A stretch of DNA of 64,000 nt from Candidatus Falkowbacteria bacterium (GTDB taxonomy: Bacteria > Patescibacteriota > Patescibacteriia > Patescibacteriales > UBA12465), in contig JBAXLJ010000001.1 of assembly GCA_037134915.1 (NCBI GenBank), positions 165,484 through 229,483 of the forward strand. Direction: 5' to 3'. Each line of letters starts with the position of its first letter. Position 1 is the first letter of the stretch. Positions 4,108 to 60,199 of the stretch are shown here, piece by piece. The notes below the pieces were generated by a model. It searched no databases. It was not told the origin of the DNA and saw only the letters and a program-made list of their open reading frames with translations. Both the position numbers and the translations under genes were made by a program.

Positions 4108-5931
4108 ATGAATAACCAAGATAAAATTAGAAATTTTTGTGTAATTGCCCATATTGATCACGGAAAATCAACCCTGGCTGATCGGATGCTGGAAATTACC
4201 GGTACGGTTGAAAAGCGTAATATGAAGGCTCAGCTTTTGGATGGGATGGATATTGAACGTGAACGCGGGATTACAATTAAGCTGCAACCGGTAACTATGA
4301 GTTATCAGGGGTATCAGCTTAATTTGATTGACACTCCGGGTCATGTCGATTTCTCCTATGAAGTTTCTCGGTCGTTAGCGGCGGTAGAAACAGCCGTCTT
4401 GCTGGTTGACTGCACTCAAGGTATCCAGGCGCAAACTCTGGCTAATTTGTATTTGGCCTTGGAGCAAGATTTAACGATAATTCCGGTCGTTAATAAAATT
4501 GATTTACCAGCGGCTGACATTGTTAAAACTAAGGCAGAAATTATTAAATTATTAGGTTGCCGCGAAGAAGAAATAATCTGTTCTTCCGGAAAAACTGGTG
4601 AGGGTGTTGCTGAGGTTTTGCAAGCGGTTATTGATTATGGCCATAGTCCTAAATCATTAGTTGGTGAAGAAAAGCAAGACTACCCCCGAGCTTTGATTTT
4701 TGATTCAAAATACGATGAGTACAAAGGCGTGGTCGCTTATGTCAGAATTTTTGATGGTCATATAAAAAAGGGTGACAAAATTAAATTAATGGCGACCGAT
4801 GTCACGAGTGAAGTTTTAGATATTGGCATTTTTAAACCGGATTATTTTTCAACCGGCGAACTTAAAAGCGGGGAAATTGGCTATATTGTGACCGGTTTTA
4901 AACAAGTCGGTGAGTGTCGTGTTGGTGACACAATGACTGCTAATATTGGGGTTTCTCATTCTTTGCAAATTAAACCGCTCGCTGGTTATAAAGAAGTGAA
5001 ACCGATGGTCTTTGCGGGGATTTTTCCTAGCGAAGGTGATAATCTGCAAAACTTACGCGACGCCATGGAAAAGCTAAAATTAAATGACGCGGCCCTAGTT
5101 TACGAACCAGAACAATCAGATGCTATTGGTGTGGGGTTTCGTTGCGGTTTTTTAGGTCTGCTTCATCTGGAAATTTTCCAAGAACGTTTGCGTCGGGAAT
5201 ACAACTTAGATTTAATTGTCACGGTTCCAAGTGTGGCTTATAAAGTTTATAAAAAGGGCGGTGAAGAGCTGATTGTGCGGACACCGCAGAGACTACCAGA
5301 CCCTAATGCGATTGAATCGATTGAAGAGCCGATTGTTACTTTAGATATTATTACCCCTAAAAATTATTTAGGCGGTATTATGAAAGTGACTCAAGAAAAA
5401 CGGGGTAATTATAAAAACACCGAATACATTTCCGTGGATAGTGACGACGCGCGCGTGATTTTACATTATGACATTCCGATGTCGGCCATTTTAACTGATT
5501 ACTATGATAAGATAAAAAGTGTTTCCGCAGGCTACGCCTCGATTAATTATGAATTTTTAGAATACCGTCCGGCCGATGTGGTTAAAATGGATATTATGGT
5601 TGCCGAAGAGCCCGTTGAATCGCTCGCCACTATTGTTTACCGTGATGATGCTTCAAGGCAAGGACGGGAAGTGGTGGAAATTTTAAAGAAAACTATTCCG
5701 CGAGAAATGTTTGTCATTAAATTGCAGGCAGCTATTGGCGGCAAGGTGGTGGCGGCAGAAAGAATTAGTGCTATGCGTAAGGATGTGACCGCGAAATTAT
5801 ATGGCGGGGATGTGACTCGAAAAAATAAATTACTGGATAAACAGAAAAAAGGTAAGAAAAAAATGATGGCGATGGGTCGGGGGCGCGTCGATATTCCGCC
5901 TGATACTTTTATTAAAATTTTAAAAAGATAA
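4108..5931 (+). CDS. lepA: Elongation factor 4 (LepA)
   Basis: GTPase motifs AHIDHGKST, DTPGHVDF and NKID, plus the LepA-specific C-terminus (…KLLDKQKKGKKKMMAMGRGRVDIPPDTFIKILK). I prefer ATG 4108 to the TTG at 4072. Confidence 0.9.
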   Translation: MNNQDKIRNFCVIAHIDHGKSTLADRMLEITGTVEKRNMKAQLLDGMDIERERGITIKLQPVTMSYQGYQLNLIDTPGHVDFSYEVSRSLAAVETAVLLVDCTQGIQAQTLANLYLALEQDLTIIPVVNKIDLPAADIVKTKAEIIKLLGCREEEIICSSGKTGEGVAEVLQAVIDYGHSPKSLVGEEKQDYPRALIFDSKYDEYKGVVAYVRIFDGHIKKGDKIKLMATDVTSEVLDIGIFKPDYFSTGELKSGEIGYIVTGFKQVGECRVGDTMTANIGVSHSLQIKPLAGYKEVKPMVFAGIFPSEGDNLQNLRDAMEKLKLNDAALVYEPEQSDAIGVGFRCGFLGLLHLEIFQERLRREYNLDLIVTVPSVAYKVYKKGGEELIVRTPQRLPDPNAIESIEEPIVTLDIITPKNYLGGIMKVTQEKRGNYKNTEYISVDSDDARVILHYDIPMSAILTDYYDKIKSVSAGYASINYEFLEYRPADVVKMDIMVAEEPVESLATIVYRDDASRQGREVVEILKKTIPREMFVIKLQAAIGGKVVAAERISAMRKDVTAKLYGGDVTRKNKLLDKQKKGKKKMMAMGRGRVDIPPDTFIKILKR

Positions 5932-33183: not shown

Positions 33184-33864
33184 ATGCCAGAAAACAAACT
33201 AGCCAAAAATAAAATATCAACCTCAACTCAAGAATACTTAGATATTGCCGAGATTAAGGATAACACGGTCATTATGAAAGACGGGACTTTGCGTTGTGTC
33301 TTGCTAGTTTCTAGTATTAACTTTGCTTTAAAAAGTGAAGATGAACAGAATGCCGTTATTGATTCCTATGTTAGATTTTTAAATAATTTAAGTTTTACTT
33401 TACAGATTGTTGTTCAGTCTAGAGAGCTCGATATTAATAACTACTTGGAATATCTAGAAGGCAAAGAAAAGGAACAGACTAATAAACTGCTTAAATCGCA
33501 GACAGGGGAGTATATTGAGTATATTAAAGAGCTGACTTCTTTGGGCAAAATCATGAATAAGCGCTTTTATGTCGTTGTGCCTTATGATCCGGCCACAGAT
33601 AAGCATAAAAGTTTCTTTAGTTCCTTTAAGGATGCCATTCGCCCGGCTTCAACCATTATTTTAAAAGAGAAAATTTTTGCCAGATATCAAGAGATGTTAG
33701 ATCGTCGCGTGGAAAGTGTCGTTTCGGGGCTAGAATCAATGGGTGTGGCGGTTGAAAGATTAGATACTCAGGGTTTAATCGAACTTTATTATAAGACTTA
33801 TAATCCGGAAACAGCTAAAAATCAAAACCTAGCTGATGTAAAAAAATTACGTGTTGATTTATGA
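33184..33864 (+). CDS. Protein resembling the N-terminal domain of Gram-positive VirB4/TraE-type ATPases
   Basis: YLDIAEIKDNTVIMKDGTLRCVLLVSSINFALKSEDEQNAVIDSYVRFLNNL…LQIVVQSRELDINNYLEYL matches my recollection of the extreme N-terminal region of long Firmicute VirB4 homologues. An ATGA overlap joins it to the VirB4 gene. Confidence 0.5.
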   Translation: MPENKLAKNKISTSTQEYLDIAEIKDNTVIMKDGTLRCVLLVSSINFALKSEDEQNAVIDSYVRFLNNLSFTLQIVVQSRELDINNYLEYLEGKEKEQTNKLLKSQTGEYIEYIKELTSLGKIMNKRFYVVVPYDPATDKHKSFFSSFKDAIRPASTIILKEKIFARYQEMLDRRVESVVSGLESMGVAVERLDTQGLIELYYKTYNPETAKNQNLADVKKLRVDL

Positions 33865-35792
33865 TAGATTTTAATAAAGAGGAAGAAAAAAGAAAAATCG
33901 GCTTCAATACTAAGCTTAGTGATTTAGGCCGTAATCCTGGCGAAGAGGCAGTGCCTAGCATTGAATCTGATCCTCTTGAAGCCAAGAATATCATCGAGGA
34001 GGAAAAAGCTTTTCGTCGCGGCGTCTTATCAGTTCGAGATCTTATTTCCCCGGCTAGTTTAAAGGCGGAAGCCAAACACTTACTTTTAGGCAACAAATAT
34101 GTAAGGACTATTTTTGTTATCAGTTATCCGCGCTACATCAGTGTCGGCTGGTTTGCTCCGATTATTAATTTGAATCTCACCTTTGATATCGCGATGTTTT
34201 TCTATCCGGTAAAAAGCGCGATCATTCTTAAACAATTACAAAATAAAGTGGGTTCTATTAGCGCTCAAATTATTGCTGACGCTGAAAAAGGGGCGGCGCG
34301 TGATCCGCTTCGAGAAACCGCTTTACATGATATCGAATATTTGCGAGACGCTTTAACTCAGGGTACTGAAAGATTTTTTCAATTCTCACTCTATGTGACT
34401 TTATACGCTGAAAACGCTGAAGACTTAGACCGGATGAGTGATCAAGTGGAAGATATCTTGGGGTCGCGTTTAGTTTATTCGCGCCGCGTCTATTTTCAAT
34501 CAGAGCAGGGTTTTAATTCGACCTTACCGACTGGTAATGATGAATTATATATTACTTTTAACATGAACTCCTCGCCCGTCGCCTCTTCTTTTCCGTTTAT
34601 TTCTAGCGAATTAACATCTGATCGCGGTATTTTATATGGTATTAATCGCCATAATAACAGTTTAATTCTCTTTGATCGTTTTTCTTTGCAAAATGCCAAT
34701 TCGGTAGTATTTGCCACTTCCGGTGCTGGTAAAAGTTATGCTATTAAATTAGAAGTTTTGCGTTCTTTAATGCTCGGAACTGATGTTATTGCGATTGATC
34801 CAGAACACGAATATAAACATTTATCCGAAGCAGTTGGTGGAACTTATATTAATATTTCTCTGTCTTCTGAAAACAAGATTAATCCTTTTGATTTGCCACG
34901 TTCTATTGGTGGCGAAGCTAAACCCAAAGATATTATTAGAAGCGCCGTTATTACCTTAAAAGGTTTGATGCGGCTCATGTTGGGTAATTTAAATTACGAT
35001 GAAGATTCGATTATTGATCGGGCGCTTCTTGAAACCTATGCCAAGAAAGATATTACACCCGACTCGGATCTTTCCAATATTGACCCACCCGTGATGACTG
35101 ATTTCGAGCAAGTCTTAGAAGGCATGGAAGGCGGTTCTGATTTAGCTTTGCGTCTTAAGAAATATACCGAAGGGACTTTTTCTGGCTTGCTTAATAACCC
35201 CACTAATGTGGAAATGAATAATCAATTAGTAGTTTTCTCGGTGAGAGACTTGGAAGATGAACTCCGGCCAATTGCTATTTATACCATTATTAATTATATT
35301 TGGAATATCGTCCGCTCGGAGACTAAGAAAAGAATTTTAGTAATTGATGAGGCTTGGTGGATGATGCAACACGAAGATTCGGCTAAGTTTATTTTTGCCT
35401 TAGCAAAACGTTGTCGTAAATATTATTTAGGCTTAACAACAATCACTCAAGATGTAAATGACTTTTTATCATCACCTTACGGGCAAGCCATTGTGAACAA
35501 CTCTTCACTGCAGGTTCTACTTAAACAATCTCCAGCGGCTATTGATTTGGTTCAAAAGACTTTCTTACTGACCGAAGGTGAAAAATATTTATTGTTAGAG
35601 TGTGGTTTAGGCGAAGGCATTTTCTTTGCCGGTAATAAACACGTGGCCATGAAAGTGGTGGCCTCATATTCAGAAGATCAACTAATTACTTCTGACCCTC
35701 GTCAGTTGCTTGAAATCGCTGAGGCTAAAAAACAATTTGACGAAGCAGCAGAAAGTGAAGCGGCTAATACGAGTGCTAATAACGCTAAATAA
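33861..35792 (+). CDS. virB4: Type IV secretion ATPase VirB4/TrbE/PrgJ family
   Basis: Walker A FATSGAGKSYAIK, Walker B RILVIDEAWWMM, and IDPEHEYKHL…GGTYINIS…KINPFDL, which is typical of VirB4. Confidence 0.85.
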   Translation: MIDFNKEEEKRKIGFNTKLSDLGRNPGEEAVPSIESDPLEAKNIIEEEKAFRRGVLSVRDLISPASLKAEAKHLLLGNKYVRTIFVISYPRYISVGWFAPIINLNLTFDIAMFFYPVKSAIILKQLQNKVGSISAQIIADAEKGAARDPLRETALHDIEYLRDALTQGTERFFQFSLYVTLYAENAEDLDRMSDQVEDILGSRLVYSRRVYFQSEQGFNSTLPTGNDELYITFNMNSSPVASSFPFISSELTSDRGILYGINRHNNSLILFDRFSLQNANSVVFATSGAGKSYAIKLEVLRSLMLGTDVIAIDPEHEYKHLSEAVGGTYINISLSSENKINPFDLPRSIGGEAKPKDIIRSAVITLKGLMRLMLGNLNYDEDSIIDRALLETYAKKDITPDSDLSNIDPPVMTDFEQVLEGMEGGSDLALRLKKYTEGTFSGLLNNPTNVEMNNQLVVFSVRDLEDELRPIAIYTIINYIWNIVRSETKKRILVIDEAWWMMQHEDSAKFIFALAKRCRKYYLGLTTITQDVNDFLSSPYGQAIVNNSSLQVLLKQSPAAIDLVQKTFLLTEGEKYLLLECGLGEGIFFAGNKHVAMKVVASYSEDQLITSDPRQLLEIAEAKKQFDEAAESEAANTSANNAK

Positions 35793-39881: not shown

Positions 39882-41936
39882 TTACTCTAAATGAGTTTTT
39901 CGCTCCCATTCGCCCAGCTTCATTTTTATGACCGGGTGTTTTTTAAATTCCGGATCTTTCGCTACTAGGGCGGCGGCTTCGTCGCGCGCTTTCTTAATTA
40001 GTTCATAATCAAAGAGTGAGCCGATTTGTAGTTCATCGAAACCGCTTTGCGTGGTGCCATATAAATCACCGCCGCCGCGCAATTTTAAATCTATTTTAGC
40101 TAGCGTCAAACCATCGTTGTGCTTAGTTAAAGCTTCTAACCGTTCTAAAGTTTTAGGATTAGAAATATTTTCTTTGGTCGGAATTAAAAAACAATAGGAA
40201 GCTAGGTTACTGCGGCCGACGCGACCTCTAAATTGGTGAAGCTGGGCTAAACCGAATCTTTCGGCGCCCTCAATTATCATAATCGTGGCATTAGGCACGT
40301 CGACGCCGACTTCGATTACAGAAGTCGCCACCAGGATTTGAATTTTTTTATTTAAAAAGTCACTCATTACTTGTTCTTTTTCCTTATTCTTTAATTTGCC
40401 GTGTAATAAGCCGACAGAAAACTCGGGGAAGATTTCGCTTTGTAAATTTTCCGCGGCCGATTTTGCTGACTTAACGCCAAGTTTATCGGATTCATCAATG
40501 AGTGGGCAAATCACAAAAACTTGGCGGCCATTTTTAAGTTCACTTCTTATAAAGTCATAAGCCAAACTTCTTTTTTTATCGGTGACAATTTTTGTAACAA
40601 TTGGTTGGCGTCCAGAAGGCAATTGGTTAATTAGTGATAAATCTAAATCACCATAAATGGAAAGCGCTAGCGAGCGCGGAATCGGCGTGGCGGTCATTGA
40701 TAAAAAATGAGGAATCAATTTATTTTCGTTACCGATTATTTTGTGGCGCTGATCAACGCCAAAGCGATGTTGCTCGTCGACCACAGCTAAGCTAAGACGG
40801 GGGATAGTAATATTCTTCTGGATAAGGGCGTGGGTGCCGATTAAGATATCCGCGCCTTCTAAAATATTATCACCATTTAATTCAAAGTTAACCTCTTCGT
40901 GACCCGAGGTTAGCAAGACAATTTTTATATTATAAATTGCTAAGTAATGAGAGAGAGTCTTAAAATGTTGCTTGGCTAAAATTTCAGTCGGCACCATTAA
41001 AGCACCTTGGCGACCGGATATTGCCACGTTAAGTAAGGCCATAATCGCCACTAGGGTTTTGCCGCTCCCAACATCGCCTTCTAGCAGCCTAGACATTGGT
41101 TGTGATTTTTGTAAATCCTTTAAAATTTCCCAGGCGGCTTTTTTCTGATCAGCCGTCAAAGAGAAAGGCAAGCCGGATACAAAACTACGAATAATTTTTT
41201 CGTCAAATTTAATCGGCGTCGCTTTTAAATTTTGGAGTTCCCGTTTGATGCTTTGGGATTTTATTTGGCGTAAAAATAGTTCTGTAAAGGCGAGTCGTTT
41301 TTGACTATCTCTAATCTCTTGGCTAGAAATTGGAAAATGAACTTGGCGTAAAGCCATTTTTAAATCAATCAAATTAAGCCGGGATCTTAAATCTTTAGGC
41401 AGCCAGTCTTCAACATAATCGGCTAGAGGCAGCACTTGCTTCATTAAGAATCTAATTTGTTTTTGGGATAATTTATTAGTACTATGATAATTAGGTATCA
41501 GGCCGTTAGTATGGATAAGTCCGCTGGCATTAATTTTTTCGTAATCAGGGGCGGTCATCTGCATTTGTCCATAATTATCTTTAACTCGACCGGCTAGTGA
41601 AATCTCGTCGCCTACTTTTAAATTGCGCGTGATAAAACTTTGGTTGAACCAAACCACTTTTAAATAGCCGGAGTCATCGCGAACTAGAGCTTCAGTAATT
41701 TGCATCTTATGGTGGGCGCTGCGCTTATTTTGAATTAAATCGATGGTCCCGATAACGCTCACTGTCTCGCCGTCTTTTAGCTCGGCAATTGGCCGGTGAG
41801 TTGAAAAGTCATCATATCTAAAAGGCAGGTAAAATAATAAATCACCAGCGGTATTTAAACCGAGACGTTTAAAATGAGCGGCGGTGACATCGCCAACCCG
41901 ATTAAGACTAGAAAGTGGAGCGCTGAAAGTAAGCAT
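39882..41936 (-). CDS. recG: ATP-dependent DNA helicase RecG
   Basis: Wedge/OB N-terminus and SF2 motifs GDVGSGKT, VDEQHRFG, MTATPIPRS and QLHQFRGRVGR. Confidence 0.9.
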   Translation of the reverse strand: MLTFSAPLSSLNRVGDVTAAHFKRLGLNTAGDLLFYLPFRYDDFSTHRPIAELKDGETVSVIGTIDLIQNKRSAHHKMQITEALVRDDSGYLKVVWFNQSFITRNLKVGDEISLAGRVKDNYGQMQMTAPDYEKINASGLIHTNGLIPNYHSTNKLSQKQIRFLMKQVLPLADYVEDWLPKDLRSRLNLIDLKMALRQVHFPISSQEIRDSQKRLAFTELFLRQIKSQSIKRELQNLKATPIKFDEKIIRSFVSGLPFSLTADQKKAAWEILKDLQKSQPMSRLLEGDVGSGKTLVAIMALLNVAISGRQGALMVPTEILAKQHFKTLSHYLAIYNIKIVLLTSGHEEVNFELNGDNILEGADILIGTHALIQKNITIPRLSLAVVDEQHRFGVDQRHKIIGNENKLIPHFLSMTATPIPRSLALSIYGDLDLSLINQLPSGRQPIVTKIVTDKKRSLAYDFIRSELKNGRQVFVICPLIDESDKLGVKSAKSAAENLQSEIFPEFSVGLLHGKLKNKEKEQVMSDFLNKKIQILVATSVIEVGVDVPNATIMIIEGAERFGLAQLHQFRGRVGRSNLASYCFLIPTKENISNPKTLERLEALTKHNDGLTLAKIDLKLRGGGDLYGTTQSGFDELQIGSLFDYELIKKARDEAAALVAKDPEFKKHPVIKMKLGEWERKTHLE

Positions 41937-42706: not shown

Positions 42707-42799
42707 GGAGAGATGGCCGAGTGGCTGAAGGCGGCAGGTTGCTAACCTGTTATAGGAGTCTAACTCCTATCCAGGGTTCGAATCCCTGTCTCTCCGCCA
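42707..42799 (+). tRNA. tRNA-Ser (anticodon GCT) with long variable arm and encoded CCA
   Basis: Acceptor GGAGAGA/UCUCUCC, anticodon loop UUGCUAA, variable arm UAUAGGAGUCUAACUCCUAUC, T arm CAGGG-UUCGAAU-CCCUG, discriminator G and CCA. Confidence 0.9.
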
Positions 42800-47435: not shown

Positions 47436-48788
47436 CTATTTTATAAGTGTTAGCGTTTTATTTTTATATGTTATTTTAGATTTTAAATTAGCAAGTAACT
47501 CTCGCTTCTCAATAGAACTTCCTTCTTTAAGGACATACTTAGCATAAACCCGCATATCAACTGAGGGTTTATGTTTTTTGTTGGGTTGTTTTTCTCCAAG
47601 TACCATGTTTTGAAATTTATTTAAGCGCTCAACTTCCATTTCCATTCTGGTTAGTATTCCGAGTTCATTCATATCAACCTTATCTATTATTTTTAATAAC
47701 TCAGTTATTAATTCTTCTTCGCGGATATATTTATTTTTACAAAACCTGTCTCTTGCCCTAGAACAGCCATAATAAATGTAATGTGCCGTTGTGCCATCTT
47801 TAAGTTGCTTATATTTGTCTTCGGCTGATATTCCCGAACCGCAACAACCGCAAGTTATCAATTTAGTAAAAGCGAATTCTTTATTCTCTCTAACAATATT
47901 ATCTCTTTTTAATTGGGTCTTTGCTTTCTCAAATAACTCTTGAGTAATTAGTGGCTTATGTTTTCCTTGGTACCAATTACCGCTACCTTTTGGTCTTTCA
48001 AATACCCCGTAGTAAAAAGAATTATCTAATATTCTATATATACCACTAAGTGTTAATGGTTTATTACCTCGAGTATAAAAATTAAGTTCATGAACTAGCC
48101 AATGATATAGTTTTCGTCCGCTATATTTTTCATAAGCAACCTTTTCAAACATTTGTTTAATCGCTGGCGATCTAAGCGGATCTACAATAACCTGACATTT
48201 TTTATCCATTCGATTTTGGTTTAAATACCCTAACGGGGCAGGCCCTACCCATAAGCCCATTTCGCATCTAGTTCTGAGTCCTCGTTTTACATTTACACCT
48301 CTGTTGTCGTTTTCTAATTTAGCCTGTGACCCTAAAATCATTAGTAAGAATTTCTCATTAGGATTATTAGTGAATCTCTGACTGAAAGTTCTTATTTCTT
48401 TAAGTATTCCTTGGTCGATTAAATCGACTATTGCCCCAAGGTCGCCAGCATTTCTTGATATACGATCTGGGGCCCAGGTTAGTATCGCATTAAATTTGCC
48501 TAGTTTAATATCGGCCACTAATTCATTAAAAATTTGTCTTTGCCCAACTTCTTTAGCACTATGAGATTCTCGTCTTATTTCTGTAATATTGAGATTCTCT
48601 CGAGTGGCCAAATCGAGCATTTCTTTGATTTGGCTATCAATTGATAATACCTGTCTTTCTTCGGACTCAGTTGACTTCCGAGCATAAAGACAATACTTCA
48701 GGGTTTCTTGTGAGAAGACCCCTAAATTAGCTCCATTTTGGCCCTGTATGGTCGCATTGGGGCCTAAAACTGTAGTTACTTGGTTCAT
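47436..48788 (-). CDS. Large serine recombinase (resolvase/invertase N-domain, recombinase domain and zinc ribbon)
   Basis: N-terminus YCLYARKSTESEERQVLSIDSQ (catalytic Ser region), …DRISRN…, a recombinase domain and a Cys cluster CGCCGSG…YYGC. Confidence 0.85.
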   Translation of the reverse strand: MNQVTTVLGPNATIQGQNGANLGVFSQETLKYCLYARKSTESEERQVLSIDSQIKEMLDLATRENLNITEIRRESHSAKEVGQRQIFNELVADIKLGKFNAILTWAPDRISRNAGDLGAIVDLIDQGILKEIRTFSQRFTNNPNEKFLLMILGSQAKLENDNRGVNVKRGLRTRCEMGLWVGPAPLGYLNQNRMDKKCQVIVDPLRSPAIKQMFEKVAYEKYSGRKLYHWLVHELNFYTRGNKPLTLSGIYRILDNSFYYGVFERPKGSGNWYQGKHKPLITQELFEKAKTQLKRDNIVRENKEFAFTKLITCGCCGSGISAEDKYKQLKDGTTAHYIYYGCSRARDRFCKNKYIREEELITELLKIIDKVDMNELGILTRMEMEVERLNKFQNMVLGEKQPNKKHKPSVDMRVYAKYVLKEGSSIEKRELLANLKSKITYKNKTLTLIK

Positions 48789-48875
48789 ATGGTTATAGTT
48801 GTTATAACCAAGTAATGACGCAATAAAGATAGGAAGTCTAGGCCTTTAAAGTAGGTAAGTTGTTGGTAACTATAC

Positions 48876-48904
48876 TTTACTTTTTGGCTTTTTCAAGCTA
48901 TATT
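48876..48904 (+). promoter_or_regulatory. Candidate promoter driving the structured leader
   Basis: TTTACT (48876-48881), a 17-nt spacer and TATATT (48899-48904). The predicted start near 48911 coincides with the 5' strand of helix P1. Confidence 0.35.
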
Positions 48905-48910
48905 TTAAGT

Positions 48911-49070
48911 GCTAAACCGTAATCAAATATCGTGAAGTGCGCACCCAATTTTTGGGAGCCTTGGCTTATTTGCATACAGGAACGGACATACCGACCCATA
49001 TGCAAGTAGGCGTCTTCACGGACACTGATTGCGGTTTAGCGACCGGGTCGGGTGTCCGTTTTTGTTTTTT
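48911..49070 (+). ncRNA. Unclassified structured leader / riboswitch-like element with intrinsic terminator
   Basis: Nested helices: P1 48911-48925/49026-49040 (15 bp, one U·G); P2 48931-48937/49014-49020 (7 bp); hairpin 48944-48956; hairpin 48967-48976/48999-49008 (10 bp, one U·G). A competing terminator at 49018-49025/49052-59 is followed by TTTTGTTTTTT. Confidence 0.45.
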
Positions 49071-49108
49071 AGACGGGTTTTCGACCATTTATAATTAATT
49101 ATAAAAAT

Positions 49109-49696
49109 ATGGCCGAAGCCAAACAAAACATTTGTAAGCATTGTAAGGAATCAGTTGCCAGGGGAGCAACGAAATGCCCTCATTGCCAGTCTGATTTAAG
49201 AAATTTCTTTGTTAGACATCCGTTAATAGTGATATTTTTATTAGCAATATTAGTACCGACTATTATTTCAGCACTAGGAGAGAATAGATCGGTGACTTCA
49301 CAACAAGCTCAAAAAACGCAGACTCAAACCCCAGTAGATACCAGCAACATTAAATATGAAATAATCAAAACATGGGATATTGCTAACGGCGGAACTGGAA
49401 GAGAAATATTAATTCCTGTTTCTTATGTTAACGACAAGGACATGGTGGCTTTGGGTGAAAAACTAAAATCAGATTTTGTAGATGAACGCAATAACTTTAT
49501 CTGGGTATTTACCGATAAAAAACTTTCGGCTCTAAGATCTAAGATGATGAAGGCGGATCTTAGTAAGAGTGATCAAGATTTCTATGACAAACACTATGTT
49601 GGTCAATATAATAAAAATATAAACTCGGGAATGAACAGATTTGTTATTTACTTCGACGGCGTCAACGGATCAAATCAAAAAACTATTAATTATTAA
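49109..49696 (+). CDS. Zinc-ribbon membrane protein (hypothetical)
   Basis: N-terminus CKHCKESVARGATKCPHCQS, one TM helix (LIVIFLLAILVPTIISAL) and an extracytoplasmic domain. Confidence 0.6.
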   Translation: MAEAKQNICKHCKESVARGATKCPHCQSDLRNFFVRHPLIVIFLLAILVPTIISALGENRSVTSQQAQKTQTQTPVDTSNIKYEIIKTWDIANGGTGREILIPVSYVNDKDMVALGEKLKSDFVDERNNFIWVFTDKKLSALRSKMMKADLSKSDQDFYDKHYVGQYNKNINSGMNRFVIYFDGVNGSNQKTINY

Positions 49697-49753: not shown

Positions 49754-50245
49754 CTACTTAAGATTATTATTTTTCCATTGAGCTAATCTCTTAGCCAATT
49801 TAGCTAAATATTCAGGTGGTAATTTTCTTTCTCGCGTGTCCTCTGATAAAGCTAGGAGCGGATTAATGAAATTTGGATGCATATGAGTTAGCCAAAATAT
49901 TGTTGCTCTTGGGTCATCATTTTTAACCCTGCCAATTAACTTCGATTCGGCTAGATCATTAATAGTGTTTCTTCCTTCTATTTGACTCTTTTTGAACTCT
50001 CTTCCAAATTCATAATCATCTATCATCCAGCGGTATAACGTCGCCCTAGAGATGCCAGTTTTTTGACAAGCGATTGACGAGATGTAGACATTACGTATTT
50101 CTTCAATCATTTTCTTCTTTTGCTCTATTTGTCTTTTTTCTATGGTGCTAAATTTGCGTTTAGTTATCTTTGTATTCTGGTTGTCTTGATTTTGTTCAGC
50201 CCTTCTTTTTAAGACATCAGCAACGGTCTCAAGTTTAGGCGTCAT
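49754..50245 (-). CDS. Helix-turn-helix DNA-binding protein (phage small-terminase-like / regulator)
   Basis: The segment IACQKTGISRATLYRWMIDD is HTH-like. A 4-nt overlap joins it to the upstream methyltransferase gene. Confidence 0.5.
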   Translation of the reverse strand: MTPKLETVADVLKRRAEQNQDNQNTKITKRKFSTIEKRQIEQKKKMIEEIRNVYISSIACQKTGISRATLYRWMIDDYEFGREFKKSQIEGRNTINDLAESKLIGRVKNDDPRATIFWLTHMHPNFINPLLALSEDTRERKLPPEYLAKLAKRLAQWKNNNLK

Positions 50246-51006
50246 ATAAGTTTATGTTTATCAGGGAGCTCGTAATATCTTTTTATAATAGTTTGGCAGT
50301 ATTCTTCGTCAGTCTCGACCATTAGGCACTGACGATTAGTCATTTCTGCGGCGAATAATAAACTACCAGATCCGCAAAATGGGTCATATATCACGTCATT
50401 AATATCTGTACTATTTAATATTAATCTTCTAAGTAATGACACTGGTTTAGTAGTGGGATGAAACTTACTTTTATTTGGTTTAGGACAAAATAAAATACTT
50501 TTATCCTTGCTCTTTTTAAAAGAGTGTGTGCCAAACCAGCTATAAGCGATTAACTCATGCATTGGCAAATAATCCAAACGTCCAATCACGGCATTACTCT
50601 TTACCCAAATTAAAAGTTGGGAAAAATATAAACCAGTGTTTTTCATTGCCTGCCTTAAAGCAAAAATCATCTTGTCTGAGTTAAAAATATAGATGGAATT
50701 TTTCTTAGTTAGATAAGGCAAAACAATCCCGAGCCAGTCTTCAGTAAATTTAATATAGTCATCTTCACTTTGAAGTTGGTCGTTTGCTATATCCTTTGGT
50801 TTTCCAAGACTTTGACTAAAGCCAGACTTGCTAGCGACGTAATCGATACCATAAGGCGGATCGGTTAAGATTAAATTTATTTTACTATCTCCAATTAACT
50901 CTTTTACTTTATCAACATCACGGGCATCGCCAAATAATAAGCGATGAACACCTAGTTGTATGATATCACCTCGTTTAATTGATTTGTTTAATTTTGATGT
51001 CTCCAT
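50242..51006 (-). CDS. DNA N6-adenine/N4-cytosine methyltransferase (orphan, phage type)
   Basis: TDPPYGIDY precedes DPFCGSGS. No cognate nuclease lies adjacent. Confidence 0.85.
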   Translation of the reverse strand: METSKLNKSIKRGDIIQLGVHRLLFGDARDVDKVKELIGDSKINLILTDPPYGIDYVASKSGFSQSLGKPKDIANDQLQSEDDYIKFTEDWLGIVLPYLTKKNSIYIFNSDKMIFALRQAMKNTGLYFSQLLIWVKSNAVIGRLDYLPMHELIAYSWFGTHSFKKSKDKSILFCPKPNKSKFHPTTKPVSLLRRLILNSTDINDVIYDPFCGSGSLLFAAEMTNRQCLMVETDEEYCQTIIKRYYELPDKHKLI

Positions 51007-52309
51007 ATTTTTGAAATCTATTAATTATTAATTGGCAAAAGATTGGGCTTTGCTCGCATGTGTAACTTCGACGTTTTAATTGTTCACATGAGAGAGCCAA
51101 GGATCCGCTACCCCCAAACAAATCCAGCACCACGTCGTTTATTCTGGTGCATCTTCGCAGAGCTTTCTCGTGGAGGGTAATAGGTTTTTCGGTTGCATGC
51201 TGATAATCTTGGCTTGGCAACCTTTTAACTAGCCAGATGTCTAACATATCTAAAATATCATCAATCGCTCGATTGCCAACTCCAACTTCTTTGTTAAGGA
51301 TCTCGTTAAGATTTTTTATATTGGATAGATAGGGCCTACCTTTAACCCCGTAGATTACTGGTTCATAGCATTTATTAAATCCTACCTTAGGAGTCATGTT
51401 GCTGTTATTTTTAATCCATAGGCATGTTCTTTTGAAATCTATTCCCAGTTCTTTGTATATGTTCTGAAATAGTCCAGTATATTTTTGGTCATGATAATAA
51501 AAAACATGCACATCGTTTTTACTAACTAGTAGTCCACCAGAGATAGTCTTTTTAATGAAGTCTTTGTAATTAACATCGCTTTTATTATCATCAACTACTC
51601 CACCATAATTTTGGTTTTTACTTATTCCTTTTGAGTAGTCGACTCCGATATTGTATGGCGGATCCGTGTAGATCATGTCTGCCTTTTCTTCGCCCATTAG
51701 TTTCTTGATAACTTCTGGGTCAGTAGAGTCGCCACAAATAAGACGGTGATTACCGATTAAAAATAGGTCACCCGATTTTATATTAGTAGTTTTGGCTTTT
51801 TCTATTTCTTTCTCAGTATTGAAGTTATCATCTTCTGTTTCGAGGTTTTCGTCCCAGATATTTGATAAATCAATCTCATCAAAGCCAATTTCTAGAAGCA
51901 GACTAGTATCAAACTCTTTTAATAATTCATAGTCCCATTCGCCCAAGTTTTTATTTAATCGAAGGTTTAATTCTTTCTCTTTGTCTAGGGGAAGTGAAAC
52001 GTAAACAACAGGAACTTCGGTAAATTTAAGTTTTGAGGCAATCTTTAAGCGTTGATGACCTCCGATAACAATATTCTCTCGTCCTTTGTAGTTATTCACT
52101 AATAACGGGTCAATAAGACCAAATCTTTTTATACTTTCTGTAAGATCTGATTCTTGTTTCTCGGTCATTTTTCTTGGGTTGTACTCGGCCTTGTTTAAGG
52201 AGTCAATAAATACGTGTTCAATTTTGAGCCTGTTTTTTGGAAGATTTTCCATAAATTTTGAAATTAAATTTATTAGTTTTAGGTTTTTTCCAAATAAAAA
52301 AACCTCCAT
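50975..52309 (-). CDS. ParB-like nuclease domain fused to a DNA methyltransferase
   Basis: N-terminal ParB/Srx motif (YNPRKM…LLVN…VIGGHQRL), then TDPPYNIGVDY and DLFGGSGS. An alternative start at 52252 (MENLPKN) is possible. Confidence 0.8.
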   Translation of the reverse strand: MEVFLFGKNLKLINLISKFMENLPKNRLKIEHVFIDSLNKAEYNPRKMTEKQESDLTESIKRFGLIDPLLVNNYKGRENIVIGGHQRLKIASKLKFTEVPVVYVSLPLDKEKELNLRLNKNLGEWDYELLKEFDTSLLLEIGFDEIDLSNIWDENLETEDDNFNTEKEIEKAKTTNIKSGDLFLIGNHRLICGDSTDPEVIKKLMGEEKADMIYTDPPYNIGVDYSKGISKNQNYGGVVDDNKSDVNYKDFIKKTISGGLLVSKNDVHVFYYHDQKYTGLFQNIYKELGIDFKRTCLWIKNNSNMTPKVGFNKCYEPVIYGVKGRPYLSNIKNLNEILNKEVGVGNRAIDDILDMLDIWLVKRLPSQDYQHATEKPITLHEKALRRCTRINDVVLDLFGGSGSLALSCEQLKRRSYTCEQSPIFCQLIINRFQKYGDIKIKQIN

Positions 52310-52689: not shown

Positions 52690-55278
52690 ATGATCGACGA
52701 AGTCTCTGAAAATTTAGACGTACCAGGAATTAAAGATTTTAATCTCTGGTTAATTGAGCAGCCATATTGGTTGAAGTATTTGTGGTGGCTTCATATGGAA
52801 GGCCGGGAAGTAAATGATGAAGATATAAATAAGTGCTATAAATATTTATTGGAAGACTCGGGAATTATAGATGCTGAACCTGGCCGTCCTGATATAGTTT
52901 TACAAGATTTTGATCTGGACGGAGATGATAGTGCTAAAGATAAAATAAGCCTTGATAAGCTAGATAATCTTAATGGCGTAAATGCTATTGATAATAGTTG
53001 CGTGTTAGAATTTGGGAAAAATTTAACTATCGTTTATGGAGATAACGGTTCAGGTAAGTCTGGAATAGGACGGTTGCTAAGTAATGCCTGCTTATCAAGA
53101 AAGCAGCGAAAACTTCTTCCGGATGCCAGAAATACCTCGGCCTTAGTTGCTGAGATATCTGCTGATTTTCAAATTTCAGATTCATCTGACACAAGAATTA
53201 TTAATTATAAGTTGGGGCAAAATCATGAAGAGCTTAAATCTTTTTCGATTTTTGACCACGAATGTGCACCTATACATCTTGATGGTGAAAATAAAATAGA
53301 ATTTATTCCTTCAAAATTAAAAATTTTTGATGAAGTTTTGAAGGACCTTTTAAGGATTGAGGGGAAATTTCAGGAAGATATTAGAAATAGAAAAAAAGAT
53401 AACCCCGTCGCAGGATTATTTCAGGGGCAATCTCCGCTTGCAGGTTTTTTAGGAGCGCTGTCGTACGAGACAACTGACAATCAAATTGATGATGCCATAA
53501 AATTTACTCCAGAAGATAGTGATTTGTTGGCTGAAAAACAAAAAGATCTTGCACAAAAAATAAAAAAGGACGTCGCCAAACAGAAAGAAGAATTAGCGGG
53601 GGAAATTGCGGAACTCCGCATTTATAAAAGCACGCTAGGCGATGTAGTTTCGTGCTTGAGTGGAGAGAAGGCTTCCATTATAAATAAATTAGTTGAGGAA
53701 ATTAGAAATAAGAAAGAAATAGCAGATAAGCTGAGCGCCGCGAGTTTTAAGTTTGAATCATTTAAAAATATTGGAAGCCATGAGTGGAAGTCATTAATTC
53801 TAGCTGCACAAAAGTTATATGATAAAGAGACGATTTTTAATGGAGGGGAAAAGCCTGCATTCTGTTTGTTATGTCAGCAACCTCTTAGCAGCAAAGAAGA
53901 AAGCCTTTTTCAACGTTATTGGGATTTCTTGGGTAGTACGGCTGAGGAAGAGTTAAAATTAGCAAGAATAAACTTGAGCCAAATAATTGAAAAATTGAGG
54001 AATGATAATGTTTCTTGGCCAAAATTATCAAGCACAGAAAGCGCAGTGAAAATTCTTGAGCGAGATATGCCAGAGGAATTGCAAAAGATTAGAGAAGTAT
54101 TTAAACAATTACATATCCAGCTATCAAATTGGATTGCACAAGGAGATAAAGGGGGTGAGGTAAAATATACTAGCGTCACAATTGATTTAGAACAAATAAG
54201 CACATTGATAGATACGAAAAGTAAAATAGCAGCAGACTTAACAGATCCCGCGCCAGAGATCGAAGCCATTAACAGAGATATATTACAACTTGAGAATAAA
54301 AGGCAGGTTTTTGGGATTATTGATAAAATAAAAGAATATGTAGTATGGCTGCGTTGGCAGAAATCGTCAGGAAGTATTAATTTGCCAGCCTTTAAAGCGG
54401 CTACAACGCGTAAGCAAAAAGAGATCATGGAACGTTTGGTCGTTTCCAGATATGTGGAAATTTTTATCGAAGAGACTAAAGAATTGGATTGTAAATTTGG
54501 GTTACGGGTAAAAACGCATGGTCGGGAAGCGTCTACAGTAAAAGGACTTAAATTGGACTTTGCCGATAAATACAGTCCAGGTGAAATTTTAAGCGAAGGA
54601 GAACAGACGGTTAGCGCGCTGGCAGATTTTTTAACCGAGTCTAGATTGAATAAGAATAATTTCGGAATTATTTTTGATGACCCTGTTACATCTTTAGATC
54701 ATGGAAGAAGAAGTGTTATAGCCAAGAGACTCGTCAAAGAGGCAAAAGATCGTCAAGTTATTATTTTTACACATGACATTGTTTTTCTTCTTGATTTACA
54801 AAATTATGCTGACATTGAGTCGGTAGATTGCGTCTCTAAGTCCATGCGCAGAAATGTAGATAAGATAGGAATAATCAACCCAGACCTTCCTTGGATTGCC
54901 CTTGATGTTAAGAAAAAGGTTGGCTATATAAAAAACAAACTGCCAATTTTAAAAAAAGCCGAATCTGGCGATCAGGATGAATATCGTGATAAGGTGAAAC
55001 TTATATATGAACTTTTAAGAGAAGCATGGGAAAGAGCAGTAGAGGAGCGCTTGTTTAAGAAAGTTGTGCAAAGATTTGATAGAGCGGTTCATACGCAAAT
55101 GCTTGATGATGTTGAGGTAACCCCAGAATTAAAAAAAGAAATTAAAGTAGGTATGTCTGAGTCGTCAAACTGGCTTCATGACATGGCGGCCGGCCTTAAC
55201 CCCACTATTCCTACGAGCAGTAAAGTTGATGCAGAGGTTAAATTGTTAGATGATTTTATTGCCAAATGTAAAGCGTAA
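52690..55278 (+). CDS. AAA_13-type ABC/SMC-like ATPase with coiled-coil zinc hook, RloC/PrrC-like (candidate anticodon nuclease)
   Basis: Walker A YGDNGSGKSG; a long coiled-coil insert containing CLLCQQPL (CxxC); signature-like LSEGEQTVSAL; Walker B/D-loop IIFDDPVTSLD; H-loop FTHD. The C-terminal region LLREAWERAVEE…RFDRAVHT is an R-x3-E…H pattern like the PrrC/RloC nuclease triad. Confidence 0.55.
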   Translation: MIDEVSENLDVPGIKDFNLWLIEQPYWLKYLWWLHMEGREVNDEDINKCYKYLLEDSGIIDAEPGRPDIVLQDFDLDGDDSAKDKISLDKLDNLNGVNAIDNSCVLEFGKNLTIVYGDNGSGKSGIGRLLSNACLSRKQRKLLPDARNTSALVAEISADFQISDSSDTRIINYKLGQNHEELKSFSIFDHECAPIHLDGENKIEFIPSKLKIFDEVLKDLLRIEGKFQEDIRNRKKDNPVAGLFQGQSPLAGFLGALSYETTDNQIDDAIKFTPEDSDLLAEKQKDLAQKIKKDVAKQKEELAGEIAELRIYKSTLGDVVSCLSGEKASIINKLVEEIRNKKEIADKLSAASFKFESFKNIGSHEWKSLILAAQKLYDKETIFNGGEKPAFCLLCQQPLSSKEESLFQRYWDFLGSTAEEELKLARINLSQIIEKLRNDNVSWPKLSSTESAVKILERDMPEELQKIREVFKQLHIQLSNWIAQGDKGGEVKYTSVTIDLEQISTLIDTKSKIAADLTDPAPEIEAINRDILQLENKRQVFGIIDKIKEYVVWLRWQKSSGSINLPAFKAATTRKQKEIMERLVVSRYVEIFIEETKELDCKFGLRVKTHGREASTVKGLKLDFADKYSPGEILSEGEQTVSALADFLTESRLNKNNFGIIFDDPVTSLDHGRRSVIAKRLVKEAKDRQVIIFTHDIVFLLDLQNYADIESVDCVSKSMRRNVDKIGIINPDLPWIALDVKKKVGYIKNKLPILKKAESGDQDEYRDKVKLIYELLREAWERAVEERLFKKVVQRFDRAVHTQMLDDVEVTPELKKEIKVGMSESSNWLHDMAAGLNPTIPTSSKVDAEVKLLDDFIAKCKA

Positions 55279-55286
55279 TATAAACT

Positions 55287-55769
55287 ATGAAAAACATTAA
55301 AGAGAAAAAACGTCGTTCTGATATTATCTTTGGCATTATACTAGCCTCCACTCTTGGAGTCCTTTTAACCCTGTTTTCAAATTTGTATTATGATGTTGTT
55401 ATAACAAAAATAGTAAAACCGAATGAAGTGGATTGGAACCACATATTTATTTGGTTTTTTATTCTTTTAGCAACTTGGGGTTTTATTAGTTTTTTTGTTT
55501 ATGATTATGAGAATGAGTTTAAAATGAATATTAGTTTTTGGAAAAGATTTACAGATTACTTTTTTAATTCCTTTAGACCAATGCGAATCCTACGTTTTTT
55601 AGCTGGTGTTTATTTAATGATTTTTTCAGTACTGTTAATCTTTGTGTCAGCTGTAATTATATTTTCAATACTAGAAAAAATAAATATTATTTTAGCAATT
55701 GTTGCGATGTTGGGCTGGCTTATATGGATGTTAATATTGGCATATCGAAAAATATTTAAAACCAAATAG
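55287..55769 (+). CDS. Four-TM membrane protein (hypothetical)
   Basis: Four hydrophobic helices. The start lies 8 nt after the ATPase stop. Confidence 0.6.
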   Translation: MKNIKEKKRRSDIIFGIILASTLGVLLTLFSNLYYDVVITKIVKPNEVDWNHIFIWFFILLATWGFISFFVYDYENEFKMNISFWKRFTDYFFNSFRPMRILRFLAGVYLMIFSVLLIFVSAVIIFSILEKINIILAIVAMLGWLIWMLILAYRKIFKTK

Positions 55770-58058: not shown

Positions 58059-59546
58059 CTAGTTAGCCCGCAGATTGTCAATATCACTGTTGACGCAACA
58101 ATTAGCTAGGGTTTCAAAGGGTTCTTTGAAACTAACCTTAGCTAATTTTTTGTTGTCTATGGTTGAGTTCCAAAGTATCTTAGAGAGCATTTTTCTTTTG
58201 TCATCTAAACTAACTTGAAAAAATGATTTTTTCATCTTTTTAGGGCTTAAAAAGAACTCTTTGGTAAGTTCCAAGTCTTTTTCTGTCAGGGTAACTTCTT
58301 GCTCATTTTCTAAATTTTCAATTGCCTTTTTATAGTTTATAATTTCATTTTTAATCACTAATTCTTTAGTTTCAAATTCTTCTTTAGAGATAGATTTATC
58401 AAGGAGTAGGTTAAAGAGTTCGTCTTTTCTGTTTTCAAATCTCTTGAGGTCGTTTAGCAGGTTAGACTTGGCTTCTAGATACTCACGAGCGTCCGGGTTA
58501 TTATGAATTAAAAGCTCTTTAGTATTATCATACATTTCTTCAACTAAATCTTCCGAAACAACTAGTCGATCAAAGACACCGGCTAAAACATTTATCACTT
58601 CTTCCTCTTTTAAATAATGATTATGCTCACTACATCCGCCGCGACTATTAGTGCAGTAATAATAAACATACTTCTTCTTTTTTCGAGAGGCTGTTAACAA
58701 GCAACCACATTTTTCACACGACATCAGCCCTCTAAAAGGAAAATAGGGCTGTTTCTGTTTAGGGTGTTGTTTATTAATCATTACTTCCTGACAATCTTTA
58801 AATAGTTTTTGGGTAATTAATTTTTCGTGAGTACCCACATATTCTTTTTCGTGAAATTGCATAATGCCGCAATAAAAAGAATCTTTAAGTAATTTATAGA
58901 CTTTACTCTTATGATATTTAACGCCGCCTCGACTTCTAAACCCCTCCTCATACATCAAATTAGCTAGCTCTTTCATTGTATAGTTACCGGTTGAATATAA
59001 TTGAAATAACTTTTTAATATATCGAGCTCTTACTTTATCGACGGCTATTCCGCCTTTGCCGTCATTTAAATAACCAATCGGAGCGAAGTTCGGCCATAAA
59101 CCTTTTTCAATCTTAGTCTGTATTCCACGTTTTACGTTCTTACTTAGATCTAAAATATATTGATTAGCCATTGAGCCCTCAATATTTAAGAGCAGCACAT
59201 TATCACTTGGCAAATATTGTCTATCAGATGTTTGAATCGCTTTTATCTTGCCTTGCTGAAGTAACCATTGAATCTTGCCGCTATCAATCGGGTTGCGACT
59301 TAATCTATCTATTTTCCAGCACAATATTCCGTAGTCTAAATTCGTATCTTCTAAAAGCCTCATCATCTCTAAAAACAATGGGCGATTGTTTGGCAGCTTG
59401 GCCGACTTGCTTTCGGTATAGACCATTTCAATATCTAGTCCTAAACTGGTGGCCAGCTTTTTCATCTCACCGACTTGGCTCTCAAGTGAGAGAATTTGTT
59501 TACTTTTGTCTTCGCTAGACTTACGAGCATAAAGAATGTATTTCAT
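58059..59546 (-). CDS. Large serine recombinase (second copy, divergent from the first)
   Basis: N-terminus MKYILYARKSSEDKSKQILSLESQ, …DRLSRN…, a recombinase domain, Cys cluster CEKCGC…YYYC and a coiled-coil C-terminus. Confidence 0.85.
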   Translation of the reverse strand: MKYILYARKSSEDKSKQILSLESQVGEMKKLATSLGLDIEMVYTESKSAKLPNNRPLFLEMMRLLEDTNLDYGILCWKIDRLSRNPIDSGKIQWLLQQGKIKAIQTSDRQYLPSDNVLLLNIEGSMANQYILDLSKNVKRGIQTKIEKGLWPNFAPIGYLNDGKGGIAVDKVRARYIKKLFQLYSTGNYTMKELANLMYEEGFRSRGGVKYHKSKVYKLLKDSFYCGIMQFHEKEYVGTHEKLITQKLFKDCQEVMINKQHPKQKQPYFPFRGLMSCEKCGCLLTASRKKKKYVYYYCTNSRGGCSEHNHYLKEEEVINVLAGVFDRLVVSEDLVEEMYDNTKELLIHNNPDAREYLEAKSNLLNDLKRFENRKDELFNLLLDKSISKEEFETKELVIKNEIINYKKAIENLENEQEVTLTEKDLELTKEFFLSPKKMKKSFFQVSLDDKRKMLSKILWNSTIDNKKLAKVSFKEPFETLANCCVNSDIDNLRAN

Positions 59547-59663
59547 ATTATTTTAGCTAAATTTATTAATTAGTTTAAATTGTTGTGTGATTAAAACGTC
59601 CCGGTGTGTGCGTATAGTCAAGTTAATATATATAGAGGGGACGTCTTGTCTAAAATCTCATTT

Positions 59664-59731
59664 ACCGGCCATTTTCTTTTTTCGGCTCCCCGCAGGGATC
59701 CGCCAAAAAAAGAAAAACAACGGCGGCCGGT
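59664..59731 (-). promoter_or_regulatory. Long imperfect hairpin / dyad-symmetric site upstream of the second recombinase gene
   Basis: Outer stem ACCGGCC/GGCCGGT, an 11-bp U/A-rich stem, GGC/GCC, and an apical UCCC-CGCA-GGGA. The single C·A mismatch on the plus strand becomes G·U on the minus strand. That is weakly consistent with a minus-strand RNA (the recombinase 5' leader). Confidence 0.4.
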
Positions 59732-59914
59732 CCATCTGCAATCAACATAACAAAGGGGAATTAAGAAAAGTTATTGGCCGTTTTTCTTAACTCTTTAAAT
59801 CAGTAAGTTTTGTTGGTTTTTAATGCGAAAATTTACTTAATATTGGAGTTTTTTATTATTGCTTAGAAAATGTTTTAGAGGTAATATTAAGTCATAAGTA
59901 ATATTAGTAAAATT

Positions 59915-60199
59915 ATGAAAAAAATTGCTGTTAAATATTTTGTTTTGCTGTTTGTAGTTATCTCATTATCAGCTTGTTCAGGCGAAAAAACTTGGACTGG
60001 TTATTATTATCCAGACAAAGACAACATAGGAAATGAAAATACTTGGGTTATTCAACCGGGTTTTGAAACTATAGATTATTGTAGAGATTGGGTTGATAGT
60101 GTTGCTAAAGATAACCAGAATTATGACTATGAGTGCGGTTATAATTGTACGTATAGGCAGGAATACAAAATGAATGTTTGTGAGAAAACAGAAAAATAA
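59915..60199 (+). CDS. Small lipoprotein
   Basis: Signal peptide with a lipobox (VVISLSAC|SGE). The mature part is Cys-rich. Confidence 0.6.
   Translation: MKKIAVKYFVLLFVVISLSACSGEKTWTGYYYPDKDNIGNENTWVIQPGFETIDYCRDWVDSVAKDNQNYDYECGYNCTYRQEYKMNVCEKTEK

Follow-up and report, generated by a model that had tools for sequence, protein, structure and literature searches.

Several described RNAs serve as points of comparison for the locus presented here. The P4 CI RNA pairs with seqA and seqC, which leads to premature transcription termination (PMC4825925). In the IsrK system of Gifsy-1, a short terminated RNA and a read-through mRNA arise from one prophage promoter and the short RNA acts on the long one (PMC4825925). 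LOOT was described as a candidate small RNA (sRNA) by Weinberg et al. 2017 (PMC5737381). The subject of this study is a structured RNA encoded by the plus strand at positions 48911-49040 of a 64,000-nt stretch of contig JBAXLJ010000001.1 from a Candidatus Falkowbacteria bacterium; this whole stretch is called the window, and coordinates are positions within it. The RNA is confirmed as a real, evolutionarily conserved folded molecule. It is a new, uncatalogued family, absent from Rfam 15, and probably works by a variation on the logic of known attenuators or immunity RNAs. The preferred reading, with a probability of roughly 0.45, is that of a self-terminating leader or sRNA module that gates transcription of the accessory gene behind it.

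The likeness to P4 CI and P1 c4 lies in the placement within a mobile-element operon, in the part of the leader near the promoter, in a structured RNA with an exposed segment complementary to the same transcript (in the window, an apical loop that matches the RNA tail, and a further copy in a linker) and in sequence “types” that differ between related elements. There is no homology with these RNAs and no Rfam match, c4 (RF01695) included. The window RNA further differs from them in that its complement lies immediately before the U-tract of the same short RNA, that its host belongs to the Patescibacteria and that it is followed by accessory membrane genes, not by replication or antirepressor genes. 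Sequence, structure and host are unrelated to those of IsrK, and for the window RNA we only infer read-through and action in trans. Riboswitch and attenuator leaders share with it a conserved structured 5' domain, an overlapping terminator and a position upstream of co-oriented genes. They are set apart by the very long, stable P1 helix of the window RNA, by its conservation of a loop and of the complement of this loop instead of a junction pocket, and by its lack of a coherent regulon. The whole window scanned with Rfam 15 at gathering thresholds yields two tRNAs only, and at E <= 10 the segment 48700-49250 gives only noise (<=17.5 bits), none of it on the plus-strand element. The earlier sequence-only reading, which could place the fold in no riboswitch class, thus agrees with the scan, and no description of this RNA was found in the searchable literature.

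All elements of the P1/P2/P3/P4 three-way junction are found within 48911-49040 of the plus strand. The RNA and the signals around it are the following.

48851-48871, plus strand: two direct repeats GGTAA(G/C)T, GTAGGTAAGTTGTTGGTAACT, about 11 nt apart, at the left edge of the cassette
48876-48904, plus strand: promoter-like TTTACT (48876-48881), 17 nt, TATATT (48899-48904), from a motif scan
48911-49040, plus strand: RNA core, a three-way junction, from the minimum free energy (MFE) fold (z -6.3) and covariation
48911-48925 with 49026-49040, plus strand: helix P1, 15 bp
48930-48937 with 49014-49021, plus 48939-40 with 49012-13, plus strand: helix P2
48944-48956 (hairpin region 48941-48959), plus strand: small hairpin P3, CCCAA/UUGGG
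48964-48976 with 48999-49011, plus strand: helix P4, 13 bp, with a 22-nt loop
48977-48998, plus strand: P4 apical loop, 22 nt, CAGGAACGGACAUACCGACCCA, almost unchanged in 11 homologues, whereas the P4 stem covaries
49018-49025, plus strand: second ACGGACA(C) copy, made of the P2 3' end and the P2-P1 linker; 5' strand of pairing T1
49045-49059, plus strand: invariant tail GGGUCGGGUGUCCGU, the terminator 3' strand, able to pair with the P4 loop (T2) or with the linker copy (T1)
49059-49070, plus strand: U-tract U5GU6, directly after the tail
49068-49095, plus strand: second promoter-like site TTTAGA-16-TATAAT (10/12 matches), overlapping the U-tract and ending 13 nt before the ATG
49109-49696, plus strand: accessory gene; its 195-aa product has a zinc ribbon at the N-terminus and contains a membrane segment

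The MFE structure computed with ViennaRNA is the P1-P4 fold, at -67.3 kcal/mol against -42.6 +/- 3.9 kcal/mol for dinucleotide shuffles, none of which (0/200) equals the native energy; the z of -6.3 belongs to the plus strand, and the minus strand folds more weakly (z = -5.3). The segment is also a local peak of G+C (0.47 versus ~0.33 around it). The 15-bp P1, the P2 helix and the CCCAA/UUGGG hairpin that had been proposed from the sequence all belong to this structure. For P4 the hairpin and its 22-nt loop hold, but the stem reaches 13 bp instead of the 10 bp proposed. Likewise, all U·G pairs do lie on the plus strand as had been said, but non-Watson-Crick pairs number more than the two counted. 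Together with the promoter-like site and the U-tract, this asymmetry marks the molecule as a plus-strand RNA.

Ten further copies were found in Patescibacteria metagenome-assembled genomes (MAGs), in metagenomes and on one IMG/VR contig, by exact-seed scans with the P4-loop sequence followed by walking from homologues of the neighbouring recombinase. True homologues are present in the GTDB genomes at loci L031 and L032 (the latter a “Patescibacteria group bacterium” MAG), in JGI metagenome contigs (L034, L035, L039, L040, L043, L044, L048) and in IMG/VR, where L057 and L059 are two non-identical copies on a single contig. The walk through recombinase neighbours added the more divergent L054, L056 and, out of a Pacebacteria MAG, L063/L064. 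Most copies are ~95% identical and their distribution is confined to one mobile cassette. Contigs L040, L043, L044 and L048 end inside the element, such breaks being expected because the sequence is common to many genomes in one sample. The 16- and 18-mers of the loop gave many chance matches (L003-L030, L033, L036, L041-42, L045-47, L058, L060), which were dropped when their flanks were inspected. GenBank phages and PLSDB plasmids searched with blastn gave chance matches or none, and a P1-based seed gave only chance matches in IMG/VR.

Covariation supports the fold. In alignment A5, 11 distinct copies were fitted to a covariance model built here (R1), so that the alignment leans towards the structure; 96% of its P1-P4 cells are paired, and compensatory double changes occur at 23/41 P1-P4 pairs (6 in P1, 4-5 in P2, 4 in P3 and 8 in P4). 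The observed covariation score was matched by 0/500 column shuffles, and registers slid by 1-3 columns retain 0-6 compensatory pairs versus the 23 of the native one. A separate MAFFT/RNAalifold run already gives 15 such pairs. The strand test over the 11 copies counts 44 G·U against 4 A·C cells on the plus strand, and the same helices are 96.6% paired when read as plus strand and 88.6% as minus. The J1/2 and J3/4 junctions and the P3 stem vary, while the conserved residues are those of the P4 loop and of its complement. The comparison of homologous loci that the sequence-only reading had named as its check therefore comes out in favour of the fold.

The RNA is part of a cassette of ~290 bp with a fixed order: upstream repeats, promoter, RNA, U-tract and then ATG. 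Conserved sequence begins with the repeats, ~25 nt ahead of the -35, and has faded out where the following gene begins; outside the cassette the flanks cannot be aligned, and the -35/-10 elements and the U-tract keep fixed positions. The GGTAA(G/C)T repeats are kept in most copies, both beside and away from the recombinase, and are a possible regulator-binding site or UP-like element. The TTTACT/TATATT pair with its 17-nt spacing, noted from the sequence alone, is present. As a motif in a single sequence it is no better than chance (7 sites in the region versus 9.1 expected), but its position is conserved in all full-length homologues. Its predicted start at about 48911 (G48911) is supported because L034 has a differing -35 region and retains TATATT at an unchanged distance from the first P1 base.

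In intrinsic terminators, pairing directly upstream of a U-tract releases the RNA. A simple terminator scan finds only a weak 5-bp local hairpin at this locus; a G+C-rich helix followed by the U-tract is nevertheless available, the partner of the tail being either ACGGACAC or the P4 loop. The first of these pairings, T1, is the 8-bp stem that had been noticed at the outset: ACGGACAC (49018-49025) pairs with GUGUCCGU (49052-49059), ahead of U5GU6, as a helix of 8-9 bp with a loop of 26 nt. The stem exists, but the switch between an aptamer-like fold and T1 that had been built upon it is not supported, being energetically lopsided. In all 11 copies the native fold, with its P1 of 14-15 bp, is more stable than the T1 conformer by 9-15 kcal/mol. 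In addition, the T1 5' strand is conserved in 10/11 copies, and the most divergent one, L063, loses 3/8 of the T1 pairs.

The second pairing, T2, was missed by the sequence-only reading. The P4 loop at 48982-48997 (ACGGACAUACCGACCC) is complementary to the tail at 49045-49059 (GGGUCGGGUGUCCGU), forming in the window a helix of 15 bp with one bulge that can be extended into GGAA/UUUU. The duplex reaches -33.9 kcal/mol compared to -13.5 +/- 3.3 kcal/mol for shuffled tails (0/2000 as good). Across the 11 copies it ranges from -27 to -36 kcal/mol, with 0/300 shuffled tails per copy as good, and counts 14-15 bp in 10/11 copies and 13 bp in L063. Of its 15 pairs, 12 are the same in every copy, one changes from U·G to C-G and two are broken in some cells. 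The window has three ACGGACAY octamers, all of them inside the element, where ACGGACA occurs twice direct and once inverted; neither a near-match to the tail elsewhere in the 64 kb nor a second target for the loop was found there.

Note that two high-GC phage-like contigs, L006 (677-706, 766-791) and L038 (at the contig end), carry 24-27 nt identical to the P4 loop (ACAGAAACGGACATACCGACCCA) upstream of terS/terL-like genes, together with several CGGACAT repeats. Neither has a P1-P4 fold (R1 matches the loop only, at 19.5 bits), a tail complement or annotated relatives.

The same slot is filled by a different RNA in a sister element, L053, whose recombinase is 87% identical to that of the window. 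There, Rfam LOOT (RF03000) is found at L053 3738-3867 on the minus strand with 78.7 bits. L053 shares with the window the slot, a TTTACT-type promoter and the genes for a methyltransferase (MTase) fused to ParB, a second MTase and a helix-turn-helix (HTH) protein, and its U-tract is likewise followed by a co-oriented open reading frame (ORF) that begins with a hydrophobic, membrane-type segment. The two RNAs differ in scaffold, with four hairpins in series in LOOT versus a P1-closed three-way junction in the window, and have no sequence similarity. In the LOOT model, H1 contains the internal loop CCUAA/GCAUGG, H2 is long, and a pair of GAAA hairpins follows; membership requires at least 46.4 bits, and the window has no LOOT match even at E <= 10. 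Conversely, the match of R1 to L053 lies outside the LOOT core and reaches no more than 16.7 bits. What the RNAs have in common is complementarity between apex and tail: the LOOT hairpin-2 apex of L053 (GGUCUUCCGA with its flanks) has its complement in the stretch that leads up to the U-tract of this RNA (UCGGGAGACC), with a duplex of -23.7 versus -9.4 +/- 2.9 kcal/mol that 0/2000 shuffles equal, and a local terminator hairpin is absent. That two unrelated scaffolds in one slot both pair an apical loop with the tail preceding the U-tract amounts to covariation of whole modules, and is the main argument that the loop-tail contact would be functional. A 10-nt copy of the hairpin-2 5' strand (CCUAUCCUAC) is found in L053, 6 nt before the downstream ATG.

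The gene that follows the RNA has the same orientation in 12/12 distinct contexts. In the window it is the ORF starting at 49109, as had been noted. The distance from U-tract to ATG is 29-43 nt in ten contexts and shrinks to 13 nt in L034 and to -2 nt in L056, where the ATG overlaps the A/T run, so that a complete second promoter would hardly fit in these two loci. A putative coupling in cis is favoured by these cramped loci and by the orientation and spacing, which are uniform. Small proteins that carry a zinc ribbon, lie in the membrane or are secreted predominate downstream. Five of the zinc-ribbon membrane type, all different, are joined by a bPH_2 membrane protein, by a class I methyltransferase and a NucS-like protein, and by further secreted or membrane proteins that have no Pfam match. 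They do not form a coherent pathway but a heterogeneous accessory set. Since the families differ, the RNA is, on gene content, taken to head a generic cassette placed before swappable accessory genes and not a regulon.

In the preferred reading, the conserved promoter would drive synthesis of a stable three-way-junction RNA of ~155 nt whose invariant loop captures the emerging tail. A release helix would then form at the U-tract, not as a simple local hairpin but between the tail (49045-49059) and the P4 loop (48982-48997), with the linker copy ACGGACAC as a back-up partner. Acting in cis, the module would be a transcriptional gate or attenuator between the promoter and the plugged-in accessory gene, and occupation of the loop by some factor would permit read-through into that gene. 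Several observations speak against this scheme. The loop-tail helix shows no covariation, both strands being almost invariant, and the changes in L063 are one improving and one disrupting. The full 15-bp helix is incompatible with P4, and the T2 conformer lies 3-16 kcal/mol above the native fold, P1-P4 always remaining the MFE structure; we infer that release would proceed through a partial kissing helix of ~8 bp beside the U-tract, or through a refold. Rfam files LOOT as an sRNA gene and not as a cis-regulator. Finally, independent leaderless transcription of the accessory gene is plausible because of the second promoter-like pair, the scarcity of Shine-Dalgarno sites and the close -10 boxes. 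A TTTACG-17-TATAAA-like pair follows or overlaps the U-tract in most loci, with a TTTATAA(A/T) box at a similar position; over the whole window a Shine-Dalgarno-like motif precedes only 2/47 ORFs, and several ORFs carry a TATAAT-like box 5-13 nt ahead of their ATG, a sign that leaderless or very-short-leader mRNAs may be common in this organism. A broader form of the gating scheme, which is doubtful at present, regards the window RNA and LOOT as two types of interchangeable, sequence-addressed RNA “gates” of Patescibacteria elements. The apical loop of each covarying scaffold would be the upstream half of an intrinsic terminator whose downstream half directly precedes the U-tract. Since this loop is exposed, the freed RNA might in addition target, in trans, nascent transcripts of its own type, giving P4-CI-like immunity or exclusion.

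The most serious competitor, which is possible though it carries less of our belief than the gate, is a free-standing gene for a trans-acting sRNA with constitutive termination, the accessory gene having its own leaderless promoter. Its loop would be a seed or a protein-binding site for a target located elsewhere, serving immunity to, or exclusion of, related elements as P4 CI and P1 c4 do, or protein sequestration. The RNA does have its own conserved promoter and U-tract, two alternative partners for one terminator 3' strand would make termination robust, and the promoter-like pairs after the U-tract, the close -10 boxes before other genes and the Rfam filing of the same-slot LOOT all fit an independent gene; near-identity within a type next to a wholly different RNA in a sister element also resembles immunity types. 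On the other hand, no second loop target exists in the 64 kb, the co-orientation in 12/12 contexts with tight spacing is unexpected for an independent gene, and L056 and L034 hardly have room for a separate promoter. A small-molecule riboswitch, in which P1-P4 is an aptamer and ligand occupancy decides terminator formation, is unlikely. Its appeal comes from the covarying multi-stem fold with invariant unpaired nucleotides, the 5' position before a co-oriented gene in every case, the overlap of the terminator with conserved nucleotides and the lack of a match to any known class. The energies count against it: with a P1 of 14-15 bp the ligand-free fold lies 9-15 kcal/mol below the T1 alternative, and no expression platform of comparable energy is found (T1 is 9-15 and T2 3-16 kcal/mol less stable). 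T1 is moreover not conserved in L063, variation falls in J1/2, J3/4 and P3 and conservation in the loop and its complement, the downstream genes share no metabolic theme, and the RNA is found in one mobile cassette only, most of its copies being ~95% identical.

A role at the DNA level, with the region as a recombinase att site, an ACGGACA/GGTAACT operator array or a single-stranded DNA structure and the RNA fold incidental, is given little credence, somewhat less than the riboswitch. A serine recombinase adjoins in several loci, ACGGACA is found three times here and nowhere else in the 64 kb, several homologues have an inverted repeat GTGTCCGT-N10-ACGGACAT across the second -35, and L006 and L038 share the loop sequence and several CGGACAT repeats. 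Yet compensatory changes in four helices over 130 nt are unexpected for protein-binding DNA, the G·U asymmetry points to transcription of one strand, copies occur with no recombinase beside them while most recombinase homologues lack the element, and a simple att junction is disfavoured because the flanking sequences differ on both sides. Least probable of all is a catalytic or polymerase-modifying RNA, either a self-cleaving ribozyme that splits the leader from the mRNA or a put-like processive antiterminator. Ribozymes are common in mobile elements, and HK022 put lies directly behind a promoter and before a terminator, the position also occupied by the window RNA, which has in addition a mobile-element context and a three-way junction whose invariant loop can join the 3' tail in a long-range pseudoknot. 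Against these resemblances, hammerhead, twister, twister-sister, pistol, hatchet and HDV-like models give no match at E <= 10, and the junction core is not conserved.

Other candidates were rejected. A housekeeping RNA (SRP, 6S, 5S, RNase P) is contradicted by the absence of Rfam matches, the wrong architecture and the location in a low-GC island with variable flanks. A leader peptide does not fit P3, through which no reading frame can be conserved because its indels are not multiples of three. For a type III toxin-antitoxin system (ToxIN-like), there are no tandem repeats, and Pfam scans give no ToxN/AbiQ match among the diverse downstream proteins. A CsrA sponge acting through GGA motifs was set aside in view of the LOOT RNA, which occupies the same slot and has no GGA motifs at its hairpin-2 apex.

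The genomic setting is that of a mobile element beside housekeeping-type genes. The left 42 kb of the window, at ~40% G+C, code for RecJ, a class II aminoacyl-tRNA synthetase and RecG, and also for a TraG-like P-loop ATPase (33861-35792). After tRNA-Ser (42707-42799) the G+C falls to 31-35%. There follow restriction-modification genes, a large serine recombinase, the RNA and the zinc-ribbon membrane ORF, then a convergent HTH/N6_N4-MTase/ParB-MTase block, an AAA_13 protein and a second large serine recombinase. The genes nearest to the cassette are these.

47436-48788, minus strand: large serine recombinase, divergent from the RNA; Pfam Resolvase, Recombinase and Zn_ribbon_recom
49754-50245, minus strand: HTH protein of 163 aa, with a weak HTH_Tnp_1_2 match; terminase-small-subunit-like by eye
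50242-52309, minus strand: two DNA methyltransferases, one fused to ParB_N, which precede the HTH gene

The recombinase has a very large number of highly conserved relatives; its best 120 matches are 72-93% identical and many of them are named Patescibacteria, Parcubacteria, Magasanikbacteria or Pacebacteria. A backbone of recombinase, cassette with accessory gene(s), convergent HTH gene and MTases recurs in L039, L053, L054, L057, L059 and L063/L064; in this set L053 carries the LOOT RNA and not the window RNA. In L040 the 481-aa ORF after the convergent HTH gene appears, by eye, to be terminase-large-subunit-like. By its gene content the setting is an integrative, phage-like element, because the backbone recurs and L040 has this terminase-like ORF. 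Membership of a mobile element, suspected from the beginning, is thus supported, but the tie to the adjacent recombinase is not, as each occurs without the other. The RNA is found with no adjacent recombinase in L031 and L056, directly after tRNA genes, and in L059, after the terminator of another gene. Conversely, recombinase homologues occur with no RNA in L050-52, L055, L061-62 and L065-70, many of them head-to-head with restriction-modification or CBASS genes across short spacers. For the same reason a bridge-RNA-like guide for the serine recombinase is unlikely. The P4 loop bears no resemblance to the flanking tRNA genes by eye, no alignment having been run.

Additional features of the region concern the element and its neighbours. 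The G+C drop, from ~0.40 to ~0.33, occurs at tRNA-Ser (42707-42799) beside RecG (39882-41936). Since L056 (5276-6353) has a related element at this very RecG/tRNA host locus, the site looks like a recurrent integration hotspot. At least two recombinase-bearing elements appear to lie in tandem in the window. The 32.5-kb contig IMGVR_UViG_3300042286_000458 carries two non-identical copies of the module, L057 at 2801-2975 and L059 at 5683-5858, both with recombinase, RNA, the same 138-aa membrane protein, HTH gene and MTases, which suggests tandem integration of sibling elements. The second recombinase of the window (58059-59546, minus strand) has a long upstream spacer (59547-59915), whose part 59590-59800 is G+C-rich and rich in inverted repeats; the spacer folds with z -2.3 on the plus and -4.6 on the minus strand and is followed by a co-oriented lipoprotein-like ORF from 59916. 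Its layout is like that of the RNA cassette, but its sequence differs and neither Rfam nor R1 matches it. The terminase-large-like ORF seen by eye in L040 is missing from the window element, which could therefore be a defective prophage or satellite. Directly beside the element, an 862-aa AAA_13/SMC_N ATPase (52690-55278) and a small ORF (55287-55769) form a possible abortive-infection or defence gene pair.

The RNA adds a well-supported structured family from the Candidate Phyla Radiation, for which non-coding RNAs and mobile elements have hardly been described. The compact expression cassette that it heads bears on how accessory and defence-like membrane proteins are controlled in tiny episymbionts and in their elements. 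If the long-range terminator is conditional, it would represent an unusual form of attenuation. The shared slot and loop-to-tail design link the orphan Rfam motif LOOT to the window RNA and offer a testable mechanism for both; if the two are indeed interchangeable gates, this would be the first function for LOOT.

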